A DNA stretch of 64,000 nucleotides from Ginglymostoma cirratum (taxonomy: Eukaryota), in NCBI GenBank assembly GCA_024137785.1, contig JAHRHZ010000221.1:1-64000 (forward strand), given 5' to 3'. This document shows positions 4,160-57,130 of the stretch, piece by piece (position 1 is the first letter of the stretch; each line of letters opens with the position of its first letter). The notes beneath the pieces were generated by a model. The model searched no databases. It was not told the origin of the DNA and saw nothing but the letters and a program-made list of their open reading frames with translations. The position numbers were made by a program, and so were the translations under genes.

Positions 4160-4395
4160 GGAGAGACCTTGGCATTGTGGCATTATCGCTGGACTATTAA
4201 CCCGCAGACCCGGGTCAGGCTGTGAAACCATTGTCTGCTGTTGGGGCAAAAAAAAGCCCCATTTGGCTCACCGATGTCATTTAGAAAAGGAAATGTGCTG
4301 TCTTCACCTGGTCTGGCCCATGGCAACTACCTTCTGGGCAATTAGGGATGGGGCAGCTAGCGACATTGGCAGCCCATCAACGTAGGAACAAAAAT
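4160..4395 (+). mobile_element. Degenerate tRNA-derived SINE (same family as 42485-42795)
   Basis: Head ggcattgtggcattatcgctggactattaa; body tcac..atgtc.tttag..aaggaaat...cacctggtctggcc; tail gggcaattagggatggg. Confidence 0.7.
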
Positions 4396-5711: not shown

Positions 5712-8410
5712 CCAAGTATAGCATTGTTGTTGCTGTTCCAGAGACTTGGTTAAGGGAGGGACAGGATTGGCAGCTTAATGTTCCAGGATACAGATGTTTC
5801 AGACAGGATAGAGGGGGATATAGAAGGGGTGGGGGAGTGTTAAGGAGAATAACACAGCTATACTGCGGGAGGTCACCTCAGGTGGCTCATACAGAGAGGC
5901 AACATGGGTAGAGCTCAGGAACAGGAAGGGCGCTATCACCATGTTTGGGGTTTACTATAGGCCTCCCAGCAGCCAGCAGAAGATAGAAGAACAGATATGT
6001 AGGCAGATTTAGAGCAAGTTGTAAAAGTAACCAAGTTGTAGTCATGGGTGATTTTAACTTCCCATATATTGACTGGGACTCACTCGGTGCTTGGGGCTCA
6101 AGTGGGGCAGAGCTTGTAAGGATCATCCAGGAGAGCTTCTTGAAACTGTATGTAGATAGTCCAACTAGGAAAGGGGCCATACTGGATCTAGTATTGGGGA
6201 ATGAGCCTGGCCAGGGCATTGACGTCTCAGTAGGGGAGCAGCTCGGGAACAGTGATCACAATTCAGTAAGCTTTAAGGTACTGATGGATAAAGATCGGTG
6301 TAGTTGTCAGGTGAAGGTGCTAAATTGGGGGAAGGCTAATTACAACAGTATTAGGCAGGAACTGAAGAAATGTAGGTTGGAGGCAGATGTTTGAGGTCAA
6401 ATCAACATATGGTATGTGGGAGGCTTTCAAGTGTGAGTTGCTGAGAACTCAGGACCAGCACGTTCCTGTAAGGATGAAGGATAAGTATAGCAAGTTAAGG
6501 GAACCATGGATAATAAGAGATATTGTGAGCCTAATCAAAAAGAAAAAGGAAGCATTTCTCAAGGCTAGGAGGCTGGGATCACATGCAGCGAGGGTGGAAT
6601 ACAAGGAAAGTCAAAAGAAACTTTAGCAAGGAGTCAGGAGGGCTAAAAGGGGTCATGAAAAGTCATTGGCGAACAGGGTTAAGGAAAATCCCAAGGCTTT
6701 TTATACATAGATAAAGAGCAAGAGGGTAGCCAGGCAGAGGGTTGGCCCACTCAAGGACAGGGAAGGGAACTTATGTGTGGAGCCAGAGGAAATGGCTGAG
6801 GTATTAAATGAGTACTTTGCAACAGTATTCACCATGGAAAAGGACTCGGTGGATGATGAGTCTGGAGAAGGAGCTTTAGATAGTTTGGGTCATGTTGAAA
6901 TCAAAAGGGAGGAGGTGTCGGGGGTCTTGGAAAACATTAAAGTAGACAAGTTCCCAGAGTCTGATGGGATAGAGAGGCAAGGGAGGAAATTGCTGGGGCC
7001 TTGAGGGAAATCTTTGTATCCTCACTGGCTACAGGGGAGGTCCCAGAGGATTGGAGAATAGCCAATGTTATTCCTTTGTTTAAGAAGGGTGGCAAGGATA
7101 ATCCAGCTAATTACAGGCCGGTGAGCCTTACGTCAGTGGTAGGGAAATTATCGAAGAGGATTCTTTGAGACAGGATTTACTCCCACCTGGAAATCAATGG
7201 GCGTATTTGCAAGAGGAAACATGGTTTTGTGAATTCACCAACTTGGTTGAGTTTTTTGAGGAAGTGACACAGATGATCGATGAGGGTAGGGCAGTGGATG
7301 TGGTCTACATGGACTTCAGTAAGGCCTTTAACAAGATCCCTCACAGCAGGCTGATACAGAAGGTAAAGTCGCACGGGGTCAGAGCTTGCAAGATGGATAA
7401 AAAAACTGGCTTGGTCACAGAAGACGGAGGGTAGCAGTGGAAGGGTGTGTTTCTGAATGGAGGGCTGTGACTAGTGGCGTTCCTCAGGGATCAGTGTTGG
7501 GACCTTTGCCAATTGTAGTATATATAAATGATTTAGAGGAGTCTGATTAGTAAGTCTGCTGATGACATAAAGGTTGGTAAGATTGCAGATAGTGAGAAGG
7601 ACAATCAAAGGATACAGCTGGATATGGATCGGTTGGTGACTTGGGCGGAGAGGTGGCAGATGGAGTTAAACCCGGAAAAATATGTGGTAATGCATTTTGT
7701 TAGGTCTAATCCAGATGGAAAATATATAGTAAATGGCAGAGCCCTTAAGAGTACTGATAGGCAAAGAGATCTGGGTGTACAGGTACACAGGTCACTGAAA
7801 GTGGCAACGCAAGTAGAAAAGGTAGTCAACAAGGCATTTGGCATGCTTGCCTTCATCGGCTGGGGCACTGAGTTTAAAAATTGGCAGGTAATGTTGCAGC
7901 TTTATAGAACCTTAGTTAGGCCGCATTTGGAATATTGTGTTCAATTCCAGAAGGATGCGGTGGCCTTGGAGAGGGTACTGAAAATATTTACCAGGATGTT
8001 GCCTGGTATGGAGGGCATTAGCTACGAGAAGAGGTTGGAGAAACTTGAGTTGTTCCCACTGGAACGATGGAGGTTGAGGGGCGATCTGATAGAGGCCTAC
8101 AAGATTATGAAGGACATGGACAGAGTGGATAGCCAGAAGCTTTTTCCCAGGGTGGAAGAGTCAGTTACCAGGGGCCGTGGGTTTAAGGTGCGAGGGCAAG
8201 GTTTAAAGGTGATGTACGAGGGGAAATTTTTTACACAGAGGGTGGTGGGTGCCTGGAACTCGCTGCCGGGGGAAATAGTGGATGGGAATAGAGGGATACG
8301 GCCCCCGGAAGGGTAGGGGGTTTTAGTTGTGACAGGCAGCATGTCGGTGCAGGCTTGGAGGGCTGAAGGGCCTGTTCTTGTTTTGTAATTTTCTTCTTTG
8401 TTCTTTGTTC
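5712..8410 (+). mobile_element. CR1 LINE, 5'-truncated ORF2 (APE endonuclease + RT), disrupted
   Basis: ETWL...[47 protein letters not shown] motifs; tgttctt tail. Confidence 0.92.
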
Positions 8411-13600: not shown

Positions 13601-15599
13601 GAAACTAGAAGATTGGGAAAACTTTAAAGGTCGACAGAAAGCCATAAAAAGAGCTATAAAGAAAAGTAAGATAGAACATGAGAAAAATGTTTTGTGAAAA
13701 ACCTCTCCTGAAACTCTCTCTTAAGTTTTGATAGGATACAGGGTAAACAGGGTTGTCTGGACCCAATTCCTTCATGTGAAAGAGATATTGTCTTAAAACT
13801 GAACAATGAGATAAATTAACACACATGGGATTAAAGGGACAGTAGCAGAAAGGATACAATATTGGCTCAGAGACAGACACATGGCAGTGGGATCTTTTTA
13901 AAGATTGGGGTGAGCTATTGACTGCAATCCAATAGAGGCTCTTATCAGGAGCACTGCATTTTCTGTTATATATTAATTACTGGACTTGGGTTTACAGGAC
14001 ATAACTTCAAATTGCAGATGGCACCCAAATTGACAATGGAGTAAACAGGGAAGAGAACAGTAACAGACTTAAGGAGGATACAGGCAGACTGGGGAAATGG
14101 ACTGAGACAGCAAGAGAACAGAAATAGCAAGAACTGCGGATGCTGGAATCAGAGATAACGCAGTGTGGAGCTGGAGAAATATAGCAGGCCAGGCAGCATC
14201 AGAGGAGCAGGACAGTTGATGTTTCTCCAGCTCCACGCTGTGTTGTTAAGAGAACAGAAACACTGAGATGCGAATTGCTGCCTTTTGGAAAATAGACTGA
14301 GTAGATCAGTGCAAACAAGATGGTTGATTGTTGAACAGAGAAAACAGCAGTTTAATTTCTGCTACATTCTGGTTCTCCAAAATAATCAGTCTCTCTTGCT
14401 CCCACCTTCTCTAGGATGGATAGGAATGGGGGATAAACGCTGACCTGGCCAGTGATGCTCACATCCTGTGAATGAATGAAATAACAATCTTTTTACGTTC
14501 CCAATCATTTGCTGCCCTTCCAGACCAACTCAACGTAATTCATATCCCAGGACACCCATATCCCTCTGTACCTCAGAGTCCTGCAACGTCTGCCAGTTTT
14601 AATTAAAGTCTCTTGATTGATTCTTCTTGGCAAACATCAAACTCTCCATTTTCTACTGCATTGCACATTGTTTTACCCATTCACCTATTATCTCCCACAT
14701 TGCTCAATCTTAGACCTCTTACATCCTCTTCATAATTTACCCTCAACCTAGTTGCACCAAGAAAATGTTCAATTTTTAAATGAAAGATTGGCCTGATCTG
14801 ATGTCAGTGCCTTGTCATTTTACAGGAAATTGGCTGCTTTGATGATCTCAGCTTTGTGGGGGATTGGAATTCAGTGATGGATAACTCACTTCCTGACTCT
14901 CCACATCCTGACCACCATCTTCCAGGCAGAACTCAGGAATATGACAGAATACTCTTCACTTTACATGCTGACTGCAGCTTCATCCACACTCAAGATGCTT
15001 GACACAATCCAGGACTTTACAACACATTTGATTGACATCCCATCCAGTTCCTTAGACAATGACACAAAGTGGCTGCAATGTGTGCCATTTGTAAAATTCT
15101 CTGCAGCACCTTGTCAAGGCAGCTTCTTCAGCATTTCCCAAACCTGCGAAACCTACCACGCAGACAGAGGGTAGCAAGCTCCTAATAACACCAGCATCTG
15201 GATATTCCCCTCCAAGGAGCTCATCATTCTGACTTTGAACTATATCTCTCTCCTTCAGTGACACCACGTTAAGGACCTGGAGCTCCCCAGGTGATCCACT
15301 CTCTTGTGTAGTTTCCCCGAAATGGACGCAGCTACTTGGTAATTTGGCGACTATCAAGTGTGGAGCTTGGCTGATTTCAGTGGTGAAATTTTACTTTATT
15401 TTGGGTGTCGCCCCCTGCTGGCTTCAACTTAATGCCTCAAAAACATTTCAGTTTGATGATTGATGGGTTTTCCTTCTCGTTCTCACTGAATGCTGCTAAA
15501 GTGAAGATTTAACAATTTAGAATGACCAGAAACAATGCAGATTCCAAGCTGGGGGTGGCATTGTGGGGGTGGGGGGTGGTGGGGGTGAGCTGTGTAGGT

Positions 15600-15977
15600 A
15601 CACATCCTTATGCTGGGAGGCCACATTTGGAGTACTGCGTACAATTCTGGTTTTCCTGCTATAGGAAGGATGTTGTTTGAATGGAAATGGTGCAGAAAAG
15701 ATTTACAAAGATGTTGCCAGCACTGGAAGATTTGAGGTGTAAGGCTGGATAGACTGGGAGTCTTTTTTCCCTGGAGCACAGGAGGCTGAGGGGTAAAGTT
15801 ATCGAGGCCTATAAAATCATGAGAGGCATAGATAAAATGAATAATCAAGGTCTCTCTAGGGTAGGGGAGTCCAAAGCTAAAGGGGAGAGGTTTGAGGTGA
15901 GGAGGGGAACTTTTTCACACAGAGAGTGGTTCACATATGGCATGAACTGCCAGAGTAAGTGATAGAGGCAAACACAA
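15600..15977 (+). mobile_element. CR1 3' fragment (host; resumes at 19201-19360)
   Basis: aggccacatttggagtactgcgtacaattctgg...gaactgccagagtaagtgatagaggc, continuing atatttaaaaggcatttgg after 19200. Confidence 0.8.
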
Positions 15978-18900
15978 TTTTTTTTCTATTCATTTGTGGG
16001 ATGTGGGTGTCGCTGGCTGGCCAGCAATTCTTGCCCATCCCTAGTTGCCCTTGAGAAGGTGGTGGTGAGCTTCCTTCTTGAATCGCTGCTGTCCTCCTGC
16101 TGTGGGTTGACCCACAATGCTATTAGGGAGAAAATTCCAGGATTTTGACCCAGCGACAGTGAATAAATGGCGATACATTTCCAAGCCAGGATGGTGGGTG
16201 ACTTGGAGAGGAACTTGGAGGTGATGGTGTTCCTGTATATCTGATGCCCTTGTCCTACTAGGTGGAAATGGTCATCGGTTTGGAAGGAGCTGCCTGAGGA
16301 TCTTTGGTGAATTTCTGCAGTGCACCTTGTTGATGGTACAAGCTGCTACAACTGAGAGTCGGCAGTGGATGGTGTGAACGCTTGTGGATGTAGTGCCAAT
16401 CAAGCGGGCTGCTTTGTCCGGGATGATGTCAAACTTCTTGAGTGTTGTTGGGGCTGCACTCATCCAGGCAAGTGGGGAGTATTCCATCACACTCCTGATG
16501 TGTGCCTTGCAGATGGTGGACAGACTTTGGGGAGTCAGGAGGTGAGTTACTCACCACAGTATTCCTAGCTTCTGGCCTGCTCTTGTAGCCACTGTGTTCA
16601 TGTAGTGAGTCCAGTTGAGTTTCTGGTCAATGATAACACCCAGAATGTTGACAGTGGGGGATTCAGTGATGGTAACACCATTGAATGTCAAGGGACGATG
16701 GTTAGATTGTATCTTATTGGAGATGGTCATGGCCTGGCATGTGTGTGGTGCGAATGTCACTTGCCACTTGTCAGTCCAAGCCTGGATATTGTCCAAATTT
16801 TGTTGCATTTGAATATGGATTGCTTCAGTATCTGAGGAGTCACGAATGGTGCTGAACATTGTGCAATCATCGGTGAACATCCCCACTTCTGACCTTATGA
16901 TGGAGGGAAGGTCATTGATGAAGCAGCTGGAGATGGTTGGGCCTAGGACATTACTCTGAGGAACTCCTGCAGAGATGTCCTGGAGCTGAAATGATTGACC
17001 TCCAACAACCGTGACCATCTTCCCATGTGTCAGGTATGACCCCAACCACTGGAGAGTCTGCCCCCGATACCCATTGATTCCAATTTTGTTCGGGCTCCTT
17101 GATGCCACACTTGGTCGAATGCAACCTTGATATCAAAGGCTGTCACTCTCACATCACCTCTGGAATTCAGCTCTTTTGTCCATGTTTGAACTAAGGCTGT
17201 AATGTTGTCAGGAGTTGAGTGGTCCTGGTGGACCCCAAATTGGGCATTACTGAGCAGGTTATTGCTGAGCAGGTACTGCTTGATAGCACTGTTGATGACA
17301 CCTTCCGTCACTTTACCGATGATTGAGAGTAGGCTGACAGGGCAGTAATTGCCCAGGTTAGATTTGTCCTGCTTTTTGTGTACAGGACATACTTGGGCAA
17401 TTTTCCACATTGTTGGGTAGATACCAGTGTTACAACTGCATTGGAGCAGCTTGGGTAGAGAGGTGGCAAGTCTTGGAGCACAAGTCTTTAGCGCTATTGC
17501 CAGAATGTCGTCAGGACCCACAGCCTTTGCAGTATCCAGTGTCTCCAACCATTTCTTGATATCACATGGAATGAATCAAATTGGCTGAAGCCTGGTATCT
17601 GTAATTCTGGGGGTCACTGGAGGGGGCCAAGATGGATCATCCACTTGGCACTTCTGGCTGAAGATTGCTGCAGATGTTTCAGCCTTATCTTTTGCACCAA
17701 TGTGCTGGGCTCTTCCATCATTGAGGATGGGGATATTTGTGGAGCCTCCTCCTCCAGTGAGTTGTTTAATTGTCCACCACCATTCATGACTAGACTTGGC
17801 AGGACTTCAGAGCTTAGATCTGATCCGTTGGTTGTGGAATCACTTAGCTCTGTCTGTCACTTGCTGCTTTTGCTGTTTGGCGTGCAAGTAGTTCTGTTTG
17901 GTGGCTTCATCTTCAGGTATGCCTGGTATTGCTCCTGGCATGCCCTCCTGCACTCTCCATTGAACCAGGGTTGATCCCCTGGCTTGCTGGTAATGCTTGA
18001 GTGGGGGATAAGCTGGGCCATGAGATTACAGATTGTGCTGGAGTACAATTCTGCTGCTGTTGGTGGCTCAGTCTTGAGTTGCTAGATCTGTGCGAAGTCT
18101 ATTCCATTCAGCACAGTGATAGTGCCACAGAACACAATGGAGATTATTCTCCATGTAATGGTGGGACTTCTTCTTCACAAGGACCTTATGGTGGTCACTC
18201 TTACCAATACTGTCATGGACAGATGCATCTGCAGCTGGCAGATTAGTAAGGTTGAGGTCAAGTATGTTGTTCCCTCTTGTTGGTTCCCTCACCACCTGCG
18301 CAGACCCAGTCTAGCAGCTGTGTCCTTTAGGACCCAACCAGCTTGATTTGCAGTACTGTTGTCAAGCCACTCTTGGTGGTGGACATTGAAATCCCCCATC
18401 TAGAGTACATTTTCTGACCTTGCCATCCTCCGTGCTTCCTCTAAGTGTTGTTCAACATTGAGGAGTACTGACTCATCAGCTGAGGGAGGACGGTATGTGG
18501 TAATCAGCAGGAAGTTTCCTTCCCCATGTTTAACCTGAAGCCATGAGACTTCATGGGGTCTGGAGTCAATGTTGAGGACTCCCAGAGTGACTCCCTCCCA
18601 AATGTACACCACTGTGCCACCACCTCTGCTGGGTCTGTCCTACTGGTGAGACAGGACATATCCAGGGATGGTGATGGTGGTGTCTGGGACATTGTCTGTA
18701 AAGTATGATTCTATGTCAGGATGTTGCTTAACTAGATGGGAGATAGCTGTCCTAGTTTTGCCACTAAGCCCCAGATGTTAATGAGGAGGAGTTTGCAGGG
18801 TCGACAGGGCCGTACTATGAAGCACTGTACTATGTACTACGGTTCCCAGGTCGATGCCAAGTGACCTTTTCAGTTTCATTTCTTTGAGACTTTGTAGCGA

Positions 18901-19200
18901 TTGGTACAACTGGGTGGCTTGCATGGATATTTCAGAAGGCAGTTGAGAGTCAACCACATCGTTGCAGGTCTGGAGTCACACTGAGGCCAGACCAGGTGAG
19001 GGTGGCAGATTTCCTTCCCTGCAGGACATTAGTGAACCAGATGGGTTTTTCCGACAACTGGCAATGATTTCATGGCGATCAGTAGATCCTTAATTCCAGA
19101 CATTTTTAAAATCCCACAGTGGGATTCGAACCTGAGTCCCCCAAACATTCACTGGGTTTCTGGATTAATAGTCTCATGATAACTATTAGGCCATCACCCA
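15978..19200 (-). mobile_element. CR1-like LINE with tRNA-derived Pol III head and single EN-RT ORF (no ORF1), decayed
   Basis: A box 19183-19193, B box GGTTCGAATCC 19122-19132; EN begins ~18780 (NIWGLV...IPGYVLSH.DR...GGGT); TTYRPPS; SDHH; AFDIKVAFDQVWH; GVPQSNVLGP; MFTDDCT; poly-A tail at 15978-15985. Confidence 0.85.
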
Positions 19201-20639
19201 CCAATAGTTTCAATATTTAAAAGGCATTTGGAAAAGAACATGAATAAGAAAGGTTGAGATGGCTATTGACCAATGCAAGGAGGTGGGAGTAATTCCGTTC
19301 AGCAAATCTAGTCAGTCTTGACAAGAGGGCCAAAGGATCTGCTTCCATGCTGAATACCTCTGTGACGTGCCACTGAACTGAGCCTTCTCTATTCGAATCC
19401 TATCAATTTCAATCTGGGAAAATCTTCTATCGGGATTTCCCACCACAGAAATTTGAACACCGTGTTCAAAGACATCTCAGCATGGTTGGAATGTCTGAAG
19501 GCCTTCAAGGACAAGGGTGATGGGACATCACTGTCAATCTTCACTGTGAACCACTGCATTCACTGCCATTGCACCAAAACCACATTGTGACCATTCATCT
19601 TTCCAACCCCATGTCCCTAATGTCAATGTGGTCAGATTCTTCATCAGGTACATTGAGGTGATTGGAAACAACACTGAGGTCAATGACTTGTTTAGGTTTT
19701 GGAGCAGCAGGGCAGCAGGTCAAGGAGACCATGAGAACGAATGCTGCAGGATCCATCGTACACCTTTCCTCCAGCTTTACTACTGCGAGGGGTCAGGGCT
19801 TCCAGGTCTAAAATTATAAACACAAGGTGTGTGTTGCACAAATAAATTTGGAGACTTGCTGGTCAGCAGTAAAGCAAGAGGAGGCTGTGGTGCCATGATA
19901 ATGTCACCGGATTAGTATTTGAGAATCCCAGACTAACGCCCTGGATCATAAACAGAAAATACTGAAGAAACTCAGCAGGTCTAGCAGCTTCTGGGGAGAC
20001 ATAAACACAGTGAACATTTCAAGTCCAATGTGACTTTTGTTCTCATTCAATTCCTAATGCATTGAATTGTTCACCTCAAGGGTATAACAATCGATTAGAC
20101 ACTTGTAAACAAACTCCAGACAACACTGCAGTATGCACAGAACAAGTGGAGAATGAAACCAAAACCAAACGGACACACACAATATAGAAATACAGATCAT
20201 ATTTTAAACTATTCATCATTTGTCCCCTTTAGACCCCAATATCTGAAACAACACTGATAAATTATGAACTTCACCTACTCCACATTCTCACAATAGGCAC
20301 TATCTTCACCTGCTGCATTAATGTGTGTTGGACAATCCAGTGGGATCGATGGTAAACTGGATACCAATCCCAGATTCCTGATAGAAATTGGGAAAAGATG
20401 CCAAGCGTCTCGATGTCGTCAGCCAGATGTCCCGCGGACAGAGCCCCAAATATATACACCCGCTCTTCCCCTCAGCTCTTTGGGATTTTTACTGTTAGTT
20501 CCGAGTGGGAATGAGGTTGGGAATCCCTCCAAATGCCCTCTCCACCTGCCCCCTTCCCTTATTCATTCCTCTGTTGTATTCTCCCTTGTCCCTGTGTGAT
20601 CTGGGTGAGTATCCTCCCCCTGAGGCCACCCTCCACAGA

Positions 20640-21260
20640 CTGACTGCAGGAGACTGAAGGAGCGTCACCCGCCGCCCGCGCGACCTCAACCTTTTCAAAC
20701 CGCCAACGGCCAGAGCGCGAGCGGCGCGAGGAGAGGAGCGGGAAAGGAGAGCGACGACGATTGCAGGGTCACCGACCACGTGGGGTGGAGCGGGCCGATC
20801 GACACGCAGCGTCCAATCGCAAAGGGCCGAGCTCGATTAAAGCATGGGGAACGTGCGAGCGAGGCGCTGATTGGATATTCTGCGTCCGCAGCCCACCAAC
20901 CAGGAAGAACCAAGCTCTTCTGTTGCGATGGTGATGTCTGAGGGGGTGCGGCTGAGCTGTTGCCGTTGCAACGGAGGCTGCGGATCGGCTGAGGGTCACA
21001 TGGGGATTGAAGAGGCCCTGCTTTTTTCAAGCCCCCAACGGTTGAAGCGCGAGTGGAAAAGCGATGCTCTGATTGGCGGGGCCGATACCCGCGGGGCGTC
21101 GAGGTATGTTTTATATTTAAATCCCAACGGCCGGAGCGCGAGGTGGCAGTGAGAGCGGGAAACGCTGTGATTGGCGGAGCCCGGAGGAAAAGGTGGGGTG
21201 CGGGTATTTAAACCCCCGGATCCCCTCCCGGAGGGCGGTAGAGCATTGAGGGTGTATAGG
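20640..21260. promoter_or_regulatory. CpG-island promoter with CCAAT, E2F, MYB and CHR motifs
   Basis: Most CpG-dense stretch of the window; CCAAT/ATTGG at 20813, 20870, 21072, 21170; GCGGGAAA at 20738, 21155; CAACGG at 20704, 20969, 21036, 21125; TTCAAA at 20694; CACGTG at 20777. Confidence 0.7.
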
Positions 21261-21919: not shown

Positions 21920-22130
21920 ATCAAATTTCATTAATAATGATCATGGAACTACCTGATAGTCCAAAAATGTCTTTCGCTTATGTTCTTTCACAAAGAAATC
22001 TGCTATCCTGACCTGGTTTGCCTTCATGTGACTCCAGATCCAAATCAATGTGGTTGACTCCTAATTACCCTCTGAACAAGCCAGTTGGGTTGGATCAAAT
22101 GACATGGTGCCCACACCTCAAGAAGGAAGA
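21920..22130 (+). mobile_element. Old SINE body of the tRNA-headed CR1 family
   Basis: aaatctgctatcctgacctggtttgccttcatgtgactccagatcc...aatgtggttgactcctaattaccctctgaa matches 18930-19050 (reverse). Confidence 0.6.
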
Positions 22131-22759
22131 AGATTAAAATGTGAAGTAGTTACTGTAGATCTGGGTGAACTGGAGCTTGGGTTGAATTTTTGAATGGCTG
22201 AATGGCCTTCTCCTGCTCTTTAAATCCTGTTTTCCTCTATCGCACACCCTCTCGTGTTTCTCAGGTTTTGTTGCTTGGTGAAACATGAGCACTATCGGTA
22301 AGATCAGCAATTATTGCTCATCACTAATTGACCCCTGAGAAGGTGCCAGCGAGTTGGATTCTCCAACCCCTGCTGTCCATGTGGTGTACGTACGGACGGA
22401 GAGAGTGTCCAGGGTCCGAATCAAGCAACAGCGTCTGGTGCTGTAGAAGATGATGAATCTCCATAAGTTACCCCCTCAACTACGCAGCTGACAGACAATC
22501 TTGGCATCAGGAATGGAAGGGTTCTAAAACTGTAGCAATGGTGTAGGTGAAGGGTGTGCCCTCAGAATCTTGGAAAGAAGGGGGATGTGGCTTGGGGCAG
22601 TCAAAACAATTTTTCCTTGATTGCTAGTAAAGTAAATCAGATTTTCAGATAATTTGAGTGTTATTATAAATGAAGTAGTATTTCCTTATTCTTCAAATTG
22701 ATGATGTAAATGAATAAACGTGTTGAGAGATACTGGAGCAAGTCAGTCACTGATGCAGG

Positions 22760-38065: not shown

Positions 38066-41000
38066 AGAACGAAGAAAATTACAGCACAGGAACAGGCCCT
38101 TCGGCCCTCCAAGCCTGCGCTGATCCGGATCCTCTATCTAAACCTGTCGTCTATTTTCCAAGGATCTGTATCCTTCTGCTCCCTGCCCATTCATGTACCT
38201 GTCTAGATACATCTTAAATGACGCTATTGTGCCTGCCTGTACCACCTCCGCTGGCAACGCGTTCCAGGCACCCACCGCCCTCTGTGTAAAGAAATTTCCA
38301 CGCATATCTCCCCTAAACTTTTCCCCTCTCACCTTGAAATCATGACCCCTCATCATTGAGTCCCCCACTCTGGGGAAAAAGCTTCTTGCTACCACCCTAT
38401 CTATACCTCTCATGATTTTGTAGACCTCAATCAGGGCCCCCCTCAACCTCTGTCTTTCTAATGTAAATAATCCTAATCTACTCAACCTCTCTTCATAGCT
38501 AGCGCTCTCCATACCAGGCAACATCCTGGTGAACCTCTTCTGCACTCTCTCCAAAGCATCCACATCCTTTTGGTAATGTGGCGACCAGAACTGTACGCAC
38601 TATTCCAAATGTGGTTGAACCAAAGTCCTATACAACTGTAACATGACCTGCCAACTCTTGTACTCAATACCCCGTACGATGAATGAAAGCATGCCGTATG
38701 CTTTCTTGACCACTCTATCGACCTGCGTTGCCACCTTCAGGGTACATTGACCTGAACATCCAGATCTCTCTGTGCATCAATTTTCCCCAGGGCTTTTCCA
38801 TTTACCGTATAGTTCGCTCTTGAATTGGATCTTCCAAAATGCATCACCTCGCATTTGCCTGGATTGAACTCCATCTGTCATTTCTCTGCCCAACTCTCCA
38901 ATCTATCTATATTCTGCTGCATTCTCCGACAGTACCTTTCACTATCTGCTACTTCACCAATCTTAGTGTCATCTGCAAACTTGCTAATCAGACCATCTAT
39001 ACCTTCCACCAGATCGTTTATATATATCACAAACAACAGTGGTCCCAGCATGGATCCCTGTGGAACACCACTGGTCACAGTTCTCCATTTTGAGAAACTC
39101 CCTTCCATTACAACTCTCTGTCTCCTGTTGCCCAGCCAGTTCTTTATCCATTTAGCTAGTATACCCTGGACCCCATGCGACTTCACTTTCTCCAGCAGCC
39201 TACCATGGGGAACCTTATCAAATGCCTTACTGAAGTCCATGTACATGAAATCGACAGCCCTTCCCTCACCTATCAACTTTGTCACTTCCTCAAAGAATTC
39301 TATCAAGTTGGTAAGACACAACCTTCCCTGCACAAAACCATGCTGCCTATCACTAATAAGCCCATTTTCTTCCAAATGTAAATAGATCCTATCCCTCAGT
39401 ATCTTCTCCAGCAGCTTCCCCACCACTGATGGTCAATAATTTCCTGGATTATCCTTGCTACCGTTCTTAAACAAGGGGACAACGTTAACAATTCTCCAGT
39501 CCTCTGGGACCTCACCCGTGCTCAAGGATGCTGCAAAGATATCTGTTAAGGCCCCAGCTATTTCCTCCCTCGCTTCCCTCAGTAACCTGGGATAGATCCC
39601 ATCTGGACCTGGGGACTTGTCCACCCTAATGCCTTTTAGAATACCCAACACTTCCCCCCTCCTTATGCTGACTCGACCGAGAGTAATCAAACATCTGTCC
39701 CTAACCTTAACATCCGTCATGTCCCTCTCCTCAGTGAATAATGACGCAAAGTACTTATTAAAAATCTCACTCATTTTCTCTGACTCCTCGCATAACTCCC
39801 CTCCTTTGTCCTTGAGTGGGCCAACCCTTTCTCTAGTTACCCTCTTGCTCCTTATGTATGAATAAAAGACTTTGGGATTTTCCTTAACCCTGTTTGCTAA
39901 AGATATCTCATGACCCCTTTTAGCCCTCTTAATTCCTTATTTCAGATTGGTCCTACTTTCCCAATATTCTTCCAAAGCTTCATCTGTTTTCAGTCTCCGA
40001 GACCTTTGTATGCTTCCTTTTCCTCTTTGATAGTCTCACAATTTCACCTGTCATCCATGGTTCCCTAATCTTGCCCTTTCTATCCCTCATTTTCACAGGG
40101 ACGTGTCCGTCCTGTACTCTAATCAACCTCTCTTTAAAAGCCTCCCACATATCAGATGTGGATTTACCCTCAAACAGCTGCTCCCAATCCACATTCCCCA
40201 GCTCCTGTCGAATTTTGCTATAGTTGGCTTTCCCCCAATTCAGCACTTTTCCTTTCGGACCACTCTCGTCTTTGTCCATCAGTATTCGAAAACTTAGGAA
40301 TTGTGATCACTATTCCCAAAGTAATCCCCCTACTGAAACTTCAACCACCTGGCCGGGCTCATTCCCCAACACCAGGTCCAGTATGGCCCTTTCCCGAGTT
40401 GGACTATTTACATACTGCTCTAGAAAACCCTCCTGGATGCTCCTTACGAATTCTGCTCCATCTAGACCCCTAACACTAAGTGAATCCCAGTCAATGTTGG
40501 GAAAATTAAAATCTCCCATCACCACCACCCTGTTGCTCCTACGTCTTTCCATAATCTGTCTACATATTTGTGCTTTTATCTCATGCTCACTGTTGGGAGG
40601 CCTGTAGTACAGCCCCAACATTGCTACCGCACCCTTCCTATTTCTGAGTCTGTCCATATTGCCTCATTGCTCGAGTTCTCCAGTGCCCTCCTTCAGCTGT
40701 GATATCCTCTTTGACCAGTAATGCAACTCCTCCACCCCTTTGACCTCCCTGTCTATCCCGCCTGAAGCATCTATATCCTGGGATATTTAGTTGCCAATCT
40801 TGCCCTACCCTCAACCAAGTCTCAGTAATAGAAATAACATCATACTCCCAGGTACTAATCCAAGCCCGAAGTTCATCTGCTTTACCTACTACACTTCTCG
40901 CATTAAAACAAATGCACCTCAGACCACCTGCCCCTTTGCATTCATCATCTGCTCTCTGCCTCCTCTTCCCCTTAGTGACACTGACTTCATTATCTAGTTC

Positions 41001-42484: not shown

Positions 42485-42795
42485 TATTCATGGGATGTGG
42501 GTGTCACTGGCTAGGCCAGCATTTATTGCCCCTCCCTAATTGCCCAGAGGGCATTTAAGAGTCAACCACATTGCTGTGGGTCTGGAGTCACGTGTAGGAA
42601 GACATTAGTGAACCAGATGGATTTTTCTGCCAATTGGGAATGGGTTCATAATCACCATTAGACTCTTAGTTCCAGATTTTTAAAATTTGAATTCAAATTT
42701 GCCATCTGCCATGGTGAGATTTGAACCCAGGTCCCCAGAAAATTCCCTGGGTCACTTAACAGTCCAGCGATAATACCATAAGGCCATTGCCTCCC
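42485..42795 (-). mobile_element. tRNA-derived SINE (head + body + tail of the 15978-19200 LINE)
   Basis: Head tggccttatggtattatcgctggactgttaa, B box ggttcaaatc; body and tail align to 18933-19200 and 15985-16050. Confidence 0.85.
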
Positions 42796-43029
42796 CAATT
42801 TGACAAATGATTTACCCCGATCCCTGAGGCAAGGCCTGATCAAGATTAAATAGTTCTTGTTGAAAATGTAAAAATCTTTACACTCATAATGTGACAAAAG
42901 GCTAGAAACATGTATATGTATACGTGTATCATTTTTAGAATTTAGAGTCCAAACTGAAAGCAAATGGCTGTTAGCTACTTCTGTGAAAAGCTACCATTTT
43001 TTAAAAAAAAAATGGTCAGAGTCACATTT

Positions 43030-45238: not shown

Positions 45239-48200
45239 ATAGAACATAGAACTGTACAGCACAGTACAGGCCTTCAGCCCACGATGTTGTGCCGAAATTC
45301 TACCCTAAACCTAAGGTCTAACTAACCTCCACCCCCACATGCTGGCAGACAGCAAACTGGTTTGAAGTGTGTCTACTTCAATGCCAGGAGTATCCGGAAT
45401 AAGGTAGGTGAGCTTGCAGCATAGATAGGTACCTGGGACTTCGATGTTGTGGCCATTTCGGAGTCGTGGATAGAGCAGGGTCAGGAATGGATGTTGCAGG
45501 TTCCAGGGTTTAGATCTTTCATAAAGATCAGGGAAGGTGGTAAAAGAGGGGGAGGTGTGGCTTTGTTAGTCAAGGACAGTATAACGGTGGCTGAAAGAAC
45601 TTTTGATGAGGACTCGTCTACTGAGGTGGTATGGGCTGAGGTCAGAAACAGGAGAGGAGAGGTCACACTGCTGGAAGTTTTTTACAGGCCTCCGCAAAGT
45701 TCCAGGGATGTGGAGGAGAGGATCGGCAAAATGATTCTGGGCAGGAGTGAAAGGAACAGGGTGGTCATTATGGGAGACTTTAACTTCCCCAACATTGACT
45801 GGAAATGCTATAACTCGAATACGTTGGATGGATCGGTTTTTGTCCAATGTGTGCAGGAGGGTTTCCTGACACACTATGTCGAAGGGCCGACAAGAGGGGA
45901 GGCCACACTGGATCTGGTACTTGGTAATGAACCAGGCCAGGTGTTTGATTTAGTGGTAGGTGAGCACTTTGGAAAGAGTGACCATAACTCGGTTACATTT
46001 AGTTTAGCGATGGAAAGGGATAGGAACATGCCACTGGGCAAGAGTTATAGATGGGGAAGGGCAATTATAATGCGATTAGGCAAGACTTAGGAGGGATAGA
46101 ATGTGGTAGCAAAATGCAGGGGATGGGGACAATCGAAACGTGGAGCTGGTTTAAGGAACAGATATTGCGTGTCCTTGATAGGTATGTCCCTGTCAGGCAG
46201 GGAGGAAGTGATAAGGTAAGGGAACCTTGGTTTACAAAAGAAATTGTATCTTTTGTTAAGTGGAAGAGGGAGGCTTATGTGACATTGAGACGAGATGGTT
46301 CAGACGAGGCGATGGAGAGTTACAGATTAGTTGGAAGGATTTAAAGAGAGAGTTAAGAAGAGCAAGGAGGGGACATGAGCAGTCATTAGCAGGTAGAATT
46401 AAGGAGAACCCTAAAGCTTTCTATAGGTATGTGGGGAATAAAAGTATGACTAGGGTAAGAATAGGGCCAGTCAAAGACAGAAGTGGAAGTTGTGTGTGGA
46501 CCCTGCGGAGATCGGAGAGGTGCTAAACAAATATTTCTCATCTGTTTTCACTCGGGAAAAGGAGAATATTGTAGAGGAGAAGACTGAGATACGGGCCCTT
46601 AGACTTGAAAGGATTGAGGTTAGTAAGGAGGAGGTGTTATCAATCCTAGAAGGTGTGAAGGTAGATAAATCCCCTGGGCCGGATGGGATTTTTCCGAGGA
46701 TTCTCTGGGAAGCTAGGGAGGAGATGGCGGAGCCTTTGGCCTTGATCTTTGAGTCGTCATTGGCTATAGGTTTAGTACCAGATGACTGGAGGATTGCAAA
46801 TGTTGTGCCCTTGTTCAAGAAGGGCAGTAGAGATGACCCAGGTAATTATAGACCAGTGAGCCTTACATCTGTTGTAGGAAAAGTTTTGGAAAGGATTATA
46901 AGAGATAGGATTTACAATCATCGAGCAAGCAACAATTTGATTGGACATAGTCAACATGGATTCGTCAAGAGCAGGTCGTGTCTCACAAACCTCATTGAGT
47001 GTTTTGAGAAGGTGACCAAGCATGTGGATGAGGGTGGGGCAGTTGACGTGGTGTACATGGACTTCAGTGAAGCCTTTGATAAGGTTCCACATGGTAGGCT
47101 ATTGGAGCAAATGCGGAAGCATGGGATTGAGGGAGATTTAGCAGTTTGGATTAGAAACTGGCTTTCTGAAAGAAGGCAAAGAGTGGTGGTTGATGGAAAA
47201 TATTCAGCCTGGAGTCCGGTTACTAGTGGTGTGCCACAAGGATCTGTTTTGGGACCACTGCTGTTTGTCATTTTTATAAATGACTTGGACGCAGACATAG
47301 GTGGATGGGTTAGTAAGTTTGCAGATGACACTAAAGTCGGTGGAGTGGTGGACAGTGTGGAAGAATGTTGCAGGTTGCAGGGAAACTTGGATAAACTGCA
47401 GAATTGGGCTGAAAGGTGGCAAATGGAGTTCAATGCAGATAAATGTGAGGTGATGCACTTTGGGAAGAATAATAGGAAGGCAGAATACTGGGTCAATGGA
47501 AATATTCTTGGTAGTGTGGATGTGCAGAGGGATCTTGGTGTCCAGGTACATAGATCCCTGAAAGTTGCCACCCAGGTTGATAGCGCTGTTAAGAAGGCAT
47601 ACGGTGTGTTAGGTTTCATTGGTAGAGGGATTGAGTTCCGGAGCAGTGATGTCATGCTGCAACTGTCCAAAACGCTAGTGCGGCCTCACTTGGAATATTG
47701 CATACAGTTTTGGCCGCCCCATTACAGGAAGGATGTGGAAGCATTGGAAAAGGTGCAGAGGAGATTTACCAGGATGTTGCCTGGTCTGGAGCGAAGGTCT
47801 TATGAGGAAAGACTGAGGGACTTGGGTCTGTTTTCATTGGAGAGAAGAAGGCTAAGAGAGGATTTGATAGAGACATACAAAATGATCAGAGGATTAGATA
47901 GGGTGGACAGTGAGAGTCTTTTTCCGAGGATGATGACGTCGGCTAGTACGAGGGGCATAGCTGCAAATTGAGGGGTGATAGATTTAAGACAGATGTCAGA
48001 GGCAGGTTCTTTACTCAGAGAGTGGTAAGGGCGTGGAATGCCCTGCCTGCCAATGTAGTTAACTCAGCCACATTAGGGGCATTTAAACAGTCCTTGGATA
48101 AGCATATGGATGATGATGGGATAGTGTAGGGGGTGGGCTTAGATTAGTTCACAGGTCGGCGCAACATCGAGGGCCGAAGGGCCTGTTCTGCGCTGTATTG

Positions 48201-51509: not shown

Positions 51510-52560
51510 AGTGAGTTGGCGGTGGAGCTGGCCTTCTGGACTCCTGGCTCATGTGCTCTGTTTGCTTTTCTTTTTGTTTCTTCTCTTGTTTTTCTCTTTC
51601 TAGTTTTTTGTTTTTTTTTAAAGTTACCTCTTGTTGAAGAGTTTGGTCATAGCGACAGCATCAGCAGCAGTGAGTGGACCCAGCAGCATGGACTTGAGTA
51701 GGCCCAACAGTTCAGACTCATGGCTACTGAGGCAGAGGCGAGTTTGGATTCCTGGTGGTATCTGCATCCAGCGCAGATTCATAGAGGCAGTGGCAGAGGC
51801 AGGTTTGGGCCCAGTACGTGATCCGGCAACATCAGTACTGGCTGAATTGGCCAGGTGAGCCCGAAACTAACTCATGGCGACAGCGGTGTTGTGTTTAGGC
51901 CAGTGCTGTAACAAGTGGCCTTGGTGGCATCTGCATTGGCGAGAACCATTGAGGACTTAACATGGCGAAGGCGTCGGATTTTTTTTATTCCTTAATGGGA
52001 TGAGGGAGTCACTAATAGGCAGCATTTATTGCCCATCCCAGTTGCCCAGAGGGTGGGTCTGGAGTCACATACAGGCCGGACCACGTAAGGATGGCAGTTT
52101 CCTTCCGAAAAGGACATTAGTGAACCAGGTGGGTTTTTCTGACAATTGACAATGGATTCATGGTCATTACTACGCTCTTAATTCCAGATATTTATTGAAT
52201 TCAAATTCCACCATCTGGCATGGCAGAATTTGAACCCAGAGCCCAAGAATGTTATCTGGGTCTCTGGCTTAACAGTCCAACAATAATACCACCAGGCCAT
52301 CACGAGGTACGATGGCACCAGAAAGTGGCAACTTTCATTCTAGCATCGGTGGAGCGGTGAAGGGGGGGCTTGTGCAATGGAGCAGTTAATGAGGACTGTA
52401 AAATTGAACACTTTTTCTTTGTTTCTCCATTTTCTGCCTTTCTATTCTATGTTTTGGTTTATTTTTCTGTGTTTTAAGATGGCGTCGGAGAGTGGCGACA
52501 CCATGTAACACTTTTCACTGTATTTTGTCACAAAATACACATAATAATAAATGAATCAAA
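51510..52560 (+). mobile_element. Non-autonomous Rex1-tailed element with nested SINE
   Basis: Tail aagatggcg...cacttttcactgtatttt...aataaatgaatcaaa; layout like 5496-8740. Confidence 0.5.
51979..52303 (-). mobile_element. tRNA-derived SINE (same family as 42485-42795)
   Basis: gtgatggcctggtggtattatt.ttggactgttaa head, body and poly-A tail. Confidence 0.85.
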
Positions 52561-56314: not shown

Positions 56315-57130
56315 TTTTTTTGTTCTTTCATGTGGTGTGGGTGGTGCTGGTGAGGCCAATTGTTACCTATTCCTGGTTGCCTGTGAGATTTAATAGTGAA
56401 CTGCTTTCTTAACCCACTGTAGTTCATGTGATGTTAGTGCGCCCATGTTACTATTCGAAAGGTAGTTCCTGATTCCTCTCCATGATAGTGAATGAATTGT
56501 AACATAGTTCCAATTCAGGATGGTGTGTGTGGCTTAGAGTGGATCTTGCAGGTAGTGGTATTCCGTGTCATCCATAGTCACATCACACATCTGCAAGGTG
56601 CTATTGAAGGAGCTTGGTGAGTTGCTTCAGTGCATCATGCAGATGTTACACACTGCTAACATTACACATGAATGGTGGAAGAGTTGAGTGTTGGTGGTTG
56701 ATAGGCTCATGACACACTGGGAAAGTTTTTAATTTGTTTTGAATAATCTAGTGTTGTAACTATACAGAAAGTGTTGGACCAAGGGTACGATTTGTACTGC
56801 AGTACAAGTCTTCAGTACCACTGCTGGAATGCTGTCAGGACATGCAGCCAGTATCCAGTGCCTTCATGCATTTCTTGATGTTATGTGAAATGAATTGAAT
56901 TGGCTGAAGATTGACATTTGTGATGCTGAATACTTTAGGAGAGGGTCAAGATGGACCATCCACTTGCCACTTCTGGCTGAAGAGAATTGCAAGTGCTTCA
57001 AATTTGTCTTTTGAAGTGAGGTACTTGGTTCCCCAATCATTTTGTGGAAGCTGGTTTTTTCTAAAAAAGTTGTTGACCACCATTAATGATTCAGTGGGTG
57101 TGATACAGAGTTTTCATCTGAACTGATTCT
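56315..57130 (-). mobile_element. Old, internally deleted copy of the 15978-19200 LINE family
   Basis: Patches align to 15985-16400 and 17480-17830. Confidence 0.6.

Follow-up and report, generated by a model that had tools for sequence, protein, structure and literature searches.

LINEs are usually regarded as coding transcripts of RNA polymerase II (Pol II) and SINEs as short non-coding transcripts of Pol III. Canonical CR1 LINEs of vertebrates end in a microsatellite, not in poly-A. Within the CR1 group, Zenon elements have been listed for coelacanth, hagfish and five elasmobranchs, in every case ending in poly-A and lacking ORF1 (Stuart et al., 2026; PMC13343379), and the same source gives Zenons of all phyla as lacking this frame, which in canonical vertebrate CR1 lies upstream of ORF2. 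The word "tRNA" does not occur in the main text of that paper, and no description of a tRNA head, of T-run avoidance or of SINEs was found there. A Zenon with a single ORF and a length of about 3.3 kb is known from Lepidoptera to have given rise, several times independently, to short elements composed of its 5' and 3' ends (Persaeus; PMC6740152). According to this account, Persaeus shows neither tRNA homology nor a Pol III promoter, whereas the shark derivative treated below keeps a tRNA head and, this head being its retained 5' end, is a formal SINE. In Bov-tA, AfroSINE and SINE2-1_ACar, the middle and the tail of the SINE correspond to opposite ends of a LINE partner (Kojima, 2018; PMC5786205), as is the case here; in those examples, as described, a tRNA head has been joined to an already deleted non-coding element with RTE and Vingi partners only, whereas in the shark Zenon the coding LINE itself bears the head. 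The nearest precedent found is RTE-1_DAn with its relatives, LINEs of the RTE clade reported to carry a tRNA-like sequence (PMC5786205), and nothing further on this tRNA-like piece was retrieved in a literature search. SacSINE1 and the CmiSINEs are likewise tRNA-headed SINEs of sharks and chimaeras (PMC5499810); going by their description, an L2 tail and bodies of the Deu or CORE type set them apart from the SINE-A and SINE-B families introduced below, which have a Zenon tail. Searches of the literature did not yield a tRNA-headed or Pol III-transcribed Zenon.

The window analyzed here is a stretch of 64,000 nucleotides from Ginglymostoma cirratum (contig JAHRHZ010000221.1, positions 1 to 64,000) and contains a whole element of this kind on its minus strand (Table 1). 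The order of A box, B box, SINE body, EN-RT and poly-A given in the first-pass annotation was confirmed, both boxes lying exactly at the positions stated there, and the boundaries proposed there, 15977 and 19201, proved right within 1–2 bp. From its 5' end up to the endonuclease the copy measures about 430 nt, leaving, as had been claimed, no space for ORF1. Judged against the family majority, the stop codons and indels accumulated in its coding frame mark this particular copy as dead. Nucleotide comparison gave no match between the element and the canonical CR1 copies of the window, and a search of the PDB with its protein returned only distant matches to L1 ORF2p.

Table 1. Features of the Zenon-type element, its insertion site and related SINE copies (positions refer to the 64,000-nt window; "majority" is the family majority sequence).
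Feature	Position	Strand	Remarks
Zenon-type LINE copy, whole, about 3.2 kb	15979..19201	-	9% off family majority; coding frame with 8 stops and 7 indels
tRNA-derived head	19118..19201	-	nearest is tRNA-Ser(GCT) of the same genome
Pol III type-2 A box	19183..19193	-	2 changes versus family majority in window copy
Pol III type-2 B box, intact	19122..19132	-	
Non-coding conserved body	18909..19090	-	common to SINEs; near-invariant in the published shark and ray consensi compared
Small hairpin with 7-nt loop, then complementary triplet	18896..18929	-	hairpin damaged in window copy; triplet shares the frame of ORF2; candidate start element of non-AUG type
EN-RT reading frame, single	16041..18931	-	977 codons stop to stop in majority; decayed in window copy
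AP-endonuclease domain	18191..18785	-	N-terminal motif 18782, GDFN 18396, SDH 18199; relatives with PF14529/PF03372
Reverse transcriptase region	16551..17575	-	catalytic motif 16877-16866; Pfam RVT_1 E 1.4e-12 and 1.8e-09, above cut-off
3' tail stem-loop, common to SINEs	16000..16040	-	majority tail fold z -3.5
A-rich 3' end / poly-A	15979..15988	-	
CAAT, first copy of possible 4-bp TSD	15975..15978	+	chance-sized
CAAT, second copy of possible 4-bp TSD	19202..19205	+	
Host canonical CR1, portion before insertion	15617..15978	+	
Host canonical CR1, portion after insertion	19202..19280	+	
SINE-A copy	42485..42796	-	head and body to majority 292 joined to tail from 3218; private 36-nt gap
SINE-A copy	51979..52301	-	private gap (about 25 nt) immediately preceding junction
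Decayed SINE copy, same make-up	4160..4395	+	matches 4170-4211 and 4251-4318; tail by eye

After excision of the insert, the rejoined flanking sequences can be aligned without a break to three further CR1 copies in the window (468 columns at 65%, 94 at 72% and 111 at 69%). Since the host CR1 is thus continuous once the insert is removed, head and ORF came in as one unit, which sustains the earlier claim of a joint insertion, whereas the CAAT repeat that had been cited for it is of a size expected by chance. A comparison of 22 full-length copies gave a mean best match between flanks of 3.5 nt versus 3.2 nt for mismatched pairs, about 34% of which reach a match of at least 4 nt, hence showing no excess of target site duplications (TSDs) over chance; of the 31 copies reaching the 3' end, nine were left out of this comparison as a boundary could not be placed. 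With flank matches at about chance level, the CAAT pair is weak evidence of a target duplication, and the independent TSDs anticipated for further copies did not emerge. This Zenon family appears to leave little or no target duplication.

For an overview of the family, the genome (4.36 Gb) was searched with a head-plus-EN query, resulting in 12,722 first-look candidates. In all 39 other scored matches, head or body continues into the endonuclease, a result biased by the query employed; among the 39 fetched loci, the 3' end was reached in 31, with 23 uninterrupted at a length of 3.2–3.3 kb. The query bias was removed by taking copies found with the endonuclease alone. In these 55 distinct loci, the boxed head is reached in 39, while nine end in the body and seven between body and endonuclease, and a 5' end common to the shortened copies other than that of the head was not found in this EN-selected set. 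Starting from the body, 16 of the 25 continuation loci that come first by genome position run into the endonuclease. The head-EN junction is family-wide, bearing out the expectation of the first-pass annotation that it would recur across the genome.

The majority sequence of 24 copies shows one stop-free frame of 977 codons with EN and RT motifs intact, i.e., the intact consensus ORF for which the first-pass annotation suggested a check, while a second long frame or an ORF1 is absent from it. Individual copies are 6–10% away from this family majority. In a set of 87 distinct copies, those non-CpG variants that occur in at least 15% of copies split into 43 synonymous, 29 non-synonymous and 0 stop changes, versus 438, 1576 and 88, respectively, among singleton variants. 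The resulting ratio of about 0.18 (P 2.5e-12) demonstrates that the ORF of the source lineage has been under purifying selection, i.e., the headed masters required their protein. These results support a LINE family present in many copies and once autonomous, which has no ORF1 and whose tRNA-derived head is fixed, in agreement with the autonomous SINE-headed family postulated before, the window copy itself being dead. When an old copy (L041) was used as query to find a further Zenon family lacking the head, the main family alone was returned, and this old copy also has the body and a B-box-like remnant.

The element had been described as a CR1-like LINE without ORF1, an assignment which is corrected here: judged from its sequence, it is a member of elasmobranch Zenon and not a canonical CR1 deprived of this frame. 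Over the first 400 nt, the majority agrees almost letter for letter with RhiTyp_Zenon-1 in a comparison by eye, and the lengths are alike (about 3,290 and 3,293 nt, respectively). In addition to this consensus identity, the element shares with Zenon the single EN-RT ORF without ORF1 and the poly-A end, whereas the esterase-type ORF1 and the microsatellite tail of canonical vertebrate CR1 are lacking. Compared with the listed elasmobranch Zenons (RhiTyp_Zenon-1, CarCar, ScyCan, SquAca-1/2/3 and HypSab; PMC13343379), no structural difference is seen in the published consensus parts. A quick tree of 24 rows, containing no labelled Zenon references, places the element with weak support among ORF2-only relatives. 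Since the absence of ORF1 is a published Zenon trait (PMC13343379, main text), neither this absence nor the family itself is novel; the tRNA head and the T-run avoidance are. Over the full query, identity to the closest proteins from outside the sharks does not exceed 39% (amphioxus, 37%), reaching up to 44% on shorter RT stretches, while named shark gene models hold pieces with 64–78% identity. Hence, with such distant non-shark proteins and with published consensi from five elasmobranchs, nothing suggests recent horizontal transfer, transfer having been raised as a possibility in the first-pass annotation.

While the layout, the selection on the ORF and the loss of T-runs are demonstrated, the polymerase, the route of translation and the order of events are inferred, and for these the following course appears probable. 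TFIIIC would bind to the A and B boxes of the head, and Pol III would read the T-run-free element, including its ORF, through into the flank. The uncapped RNA would then be translated from a non-AUG, probably structure-dependent start within the conserved body, and the EN-RT would bind to the 3' stem-loop and copy the RNA. Copying would proceed by target-primed reverse transcription, which is established for LINEs, and would produce a small target duplication or none. As promoter and RT-binding tail sit at opposite ends, an internal deletion keeping both would yield a working SINE in one step. The best surviving alternative, in our view unlikely, is an ordinary Pol II LINE, whose ancestral Zenon would have acquired the head from a SINE in a single template switch; today the head would either be carried along as a passenger or act as a promoter element for Pol II, and the loss of TTT would have another cause, such as stability or export of the RNA, avoidance of slippage or a habit of codon use. 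Such a course would accord with published descriptions of LINEs as transcribed by Pol II (PMC10886601; PMC5786205) and of SINEs as 100–700 bp long, a size ascribed to Pol III processivity (PMC10886601).

Evidence bearing on these two readings comes first from the head. Among 27 tRNA sequences of the same genome, a set containing no tRNA-Leu, it is closest to Ser(GCT) with z values of 9.7 and 9.3, while the other 25 reach at most 5.5. The distance between A and B box is unchanged in 48 of 62 copies, and boxes at tRNA-like spacing together with tRNA homology are the hallmarks of a SINE2-type head. ARAGORN called no tRNA within the window, and Rfam gave only chance-level matches on three and six loci, not calling the head a tRNA. 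SINE heads usually go uncalled by tRNA finders such as these. The 5' ends are sharp: 37 of 87 copies, a set partly selected for the head, start within 3 nt of one point located 10–11 nt before the A box, which speaks against the Pol II alternative. Starts of Pol III transcription usually fall at such a distance upstream of the A box. In the first 400 nt of the published elasmobranch Zenon consensi, inspection by eye found an A box in seven of seven and a full B box in six of seven, and T4 in none of these seven. The three Zenons of hagfish and coelacanth do not show such a head and have runs of T4 or longer (first 400 nt, by eye), and the B-box words occur in no other consensus of the supplement of PMC13343379 (first 400 nt each). 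Both boxes have been retained across these shark and ray consensi though the spacer between them has changed, again arguing against Pol II as the transcribing enzyme. In dead copies, A and B boxes are kept no better than the rest of the head, as expected under neutrality, and hence do not add support for Pol III.

A second line of evidence for Pol III transcription is the composition of the sense strand. The majority has not a single run of four or more T in 3.3 kb, versus 14 such runs of A, 10 of C and 10 of G, which answers the check for TTTT depletion proposed in the first-pass annotation; with 3.9 runs expected (P 0.014, or P 0.16 when the codon usage of the element itself is kept), this count is modest alone, and therefore the weight of the argument lies on TTT. 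Three T in a row do not by themselves form a canonical Pol III terminator. The sense strand shows a 12-fold depletion of TTT, which is strand-specific as AAA is not depleted likewise. No other of the 64 trimers is as strongly depleted in the majority (3 TTT versus 27.8 expected). Within the ORF, two TTT contrast with 24.3 ± 4.9 under a protein-preserving null, where the lowest of 5000 draws was 9. Phenylalanine is encoded by 16 TTC and one TTT, and NTT codons stand before a T-starting codon in 0 of 23 cases versus 45 of 175 elsewhere (P about 0.001, by hand). The low share of phenylalanine (1.8%), in contrast, is no evidence for T avoidance, since none of the 10 conserved Phe columns has been lost and a share of 1.9% occurs in one relative. 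Canonical CR1 of the same genome does not share the bias, with 4.58 T4+ runs per kb in 32 fragments versus 0.18 in 24 Zenon copies, a difference of about 25-fold. Among related LINEs of other eukaryotes, taken from metagenome contigs, 80 of 80 loci contain T4+ runs (median 5.1 per kb) and have TTT observed/expected ratios of at least 0.55 (median 1.09), whereas the ratio is 0.08 in the majority and 0.16–0.46 in seven decayed copies. A pattern search revealed no A/B-box pair upstream among these 80 loci, many of their contigs ending too early to tell. A depletion specific for T and the sense strand, proceeding via synonymous sites and absent from same-genome CR1 and from all 80 related LINEs, is difficult to reconcile with the general causes invoked by the Pol II alternative. 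Nevertheless, as the control loci are distant (24–39% identical to the protein of the element) and unlabelled by clade, a lineage-specific codon habit older than the head may underlie the loss of T-runs.

The Pol III reading is weakest at the start of translation, as an uncapped RNA lacking an in-frame ATG has to be translated. Upstream of the endonuclease, the majority contains no in-frame ATG, whereas an out-of-frame ATG, which most of the published consensi share in the parts compared, opens a uORF of 35 codons overlapping the start of EN. Under the Pol II alternative, capped RNA would be translated without a special device, and the conserved out-of-frame ATG could feed reinitiation or frameshifting. 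For an uncapped RNA, a candidate start element is a small hairpin (majority positions 296–310) followed by a triplet at 327 that is complementary to its loop and in frame with ORF2. The frame from this triplet downstream is kept in the main consensi of four of five species, involving a length change of 3 nt, and is off by one in the fifth (by eye, published consensus parts). In the intergenic (IGR) IRES of dicistroviruses, an anticodon-like loop pairs with an in-frame triplet, and nested pseudoknots lie upstream. In Zenon, a loop and an in-frame triplet are present, but neither an Rfam match nor covariation accompanies them: the element loci match no IRES or ribozyme of Rfam, and no covariation behind the hairpin-triplet pairing was found. 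Body folding does not exceed that of shuffled sequences (z -0.3), a loose HDV-ribozyme pattern written from recall has no match in the first 600 nt, and indel lengths among dead copies did not place the translation start.

The SINEs of the window had been interpreted as this LINE minus about 16051–18932, which is correct with regard to the junction. In most of 60 loci of the family, here named SINE-A, majority position 292 is joined to 3218 (corresponding to 18933 and 16050 in the window) with one shared base. The exact junction 19-mer occurs 11,514 times in the genome and 0 times in the control, whereas the 19-mer for the LINE-type continuation has 1,370 occurrences, making SINE-A about eightfold more common than head-bearing LINE copies. 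The SINE-A majority, however, differs by 9.5% from the LINE ends, compared with a divergence of about 8% of SINE-A copies from their own majority, thus representing a sister lineage of the same active period and not a cut-down version of the present subfamily. Older LINE copies carry 8–10 of 17 SINE-A diagnostic states. SINE-B, a mostly older family, has its junction near 316|3213 (247 matches, 0 in the control), and single copies show still other deletion junctions (L326, L338 and L349). Repeated deletion fits this variety of junctions as well as the states found in old LINEs and has its precedent in lepidopteran Zenon/Persaeus. Hence, SINE-A and SINE-B likely arose by deletion from older generations of the headed LINE. 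Of the earlier claim that the SINE is an internal-deletion product, its composition from the two LINE ends with a fixed junction is confirmed, and the direction of the change is only likely. Alternatively, SINE-B may have been the source of SINE-A, and the LINE may originally have received its head from an ancient SINE.

The numerical dominance of SINE-A also bears on a further alternative, which we regard as improbable: Pol III would make an uncapped template, and the protein would come from a minority of Pol II read-through transcripts, acting largely in trans, the element being in effect a giant SINE paying for its own enzyme. Such a dual use would account for terminator avoidance together with the lack of a usable start on Pol III RNA, and the eightfold excess of SINE-A would indicate efficient action in trans. 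On the other hand, purifying selection along the source lineages is explained more simply if each master translates its own RNA, and no Pol II start is visible inside or before the head. A local one-off chimera or chance nesting, with a SINE placed in front of a 5'-truncated LINE, might be suggested by the great abundance of SINE-A and the chance-sized 4-bp TSD but is rejected as hardly credible, given the same seamless head-body-EN join at dozens of unrelated loci and in the published consensus parts of five species and a host CR1 continuous across the whole unit. Equally discarded is a deletion of ORF1 restricted to 15979–19201, as the family majority and the EN-selected copies also lack this frame.

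Returning to transcription by Pol III, we put forward its full version more tentatively, giving it somewhat less than an even chance: the Zenon of sharks and rays would be an autonomous element with a coding RNA of 3.3 kb made by Pol III and translated free of cap and AUG from a structured leader, an arrangement kept since the split of sharks and rays, with about 950 codons rewritten against T-runs and with SINEs emerging by simple deletion.

If Pol II should make the RNA, the result reduces to a tRNA head that has not been remarked upon in an already catalogued family, along with two SINE families derived from Zenon. If the Pol III reading is true, however, a coding LINE driven by this polymerase would break the division into Pol II-transcribed LINEs and Pol III-transcribed SINEs, and a natural Pol III RNA of 3 kb would be translatable, probably independent of cap and AUG. 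Moreover, deletion of a headed LINE would be a second path of SINE birth besides the addition of a head to a deleted one, and the SINE body would gain a plain function as the leader of the LINE.

A second head-plus-tail family of the Zenon-type LINE, SINE-B, has its junction near 316/3213 of the family majority (the majority sequence from 24 LINE copies of the same genome) and is represented by 247 exact matches to this junction. Its head is of an older type, similar to the SquAca consensi. Besides, three individual internally deleted copies were found, with junctions differing from those of both SINE-B and SINE-A, the head-plus-tail SINE present in the window. The hexamer AATAAA occurs in the tail of SINE-A (window 42485-42545 and SINE-A majority) and in some older LINE copies, while the present LINE majority shows a one-base variant at this site. 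Older fragments of the family in the window have 67-84% identity to the majority sequence. The canonical CR1 ORF2 remnants listed with them served as control in the comparison of T4+ runs against Zenon copies.

Table. Zenon-derived copies and canonical CR1 remnants
Feature	Location	Junction
Internally deleted copy	L326:1231-2032	496/2960
Internally deleted copy	L349:1377-1829	413/3098
Internally deleted copy	L338:1221-1632	338/3219
SINE-B copies	L300-L324, L332, L340, L347	
Older Zenon-family fragment	window 14402-14484	
Older Zenon-family fragment	window 14882-15260	
Older Zenon-family fragment	window 21995-22076	
Older Zenon-family fragment	window 22305-22378	
Older Zenon-family fragment	window 56315-57041	
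Long canonical CR1 ORF2 remnant	window 5896-8280	
Long canonical CR1 ORF2 remnant	window 38192-40979	
Long canonical CR1 ORF2 remnant	window 45335-47956	

The coding RNA of the Zenon majority (window 16041-18785) folds better than dinucleotide shuffles, with a mean z of -1.7 over 18 windows versus -0.3 to +1.1 for 12 control LINEs, a comparison to be read with care as single contigs are set against a majority sequence. In a separate folding run, values of -3 to -6 were obtained in single windows.

About 1.4 kb from the head of the Zenon element, window 20640-21250 is rich in CpG; it bears two TATA-like words, and each strand has CCAAT boxes, several in all. This stretch looks like a bidirectional gene promoter. 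Translated Zenon LINE pieces also occur inside annotated shark gene models (P0002, P0012, P0016, P0042, and P0052), where they are either exonised or mis-predicted.
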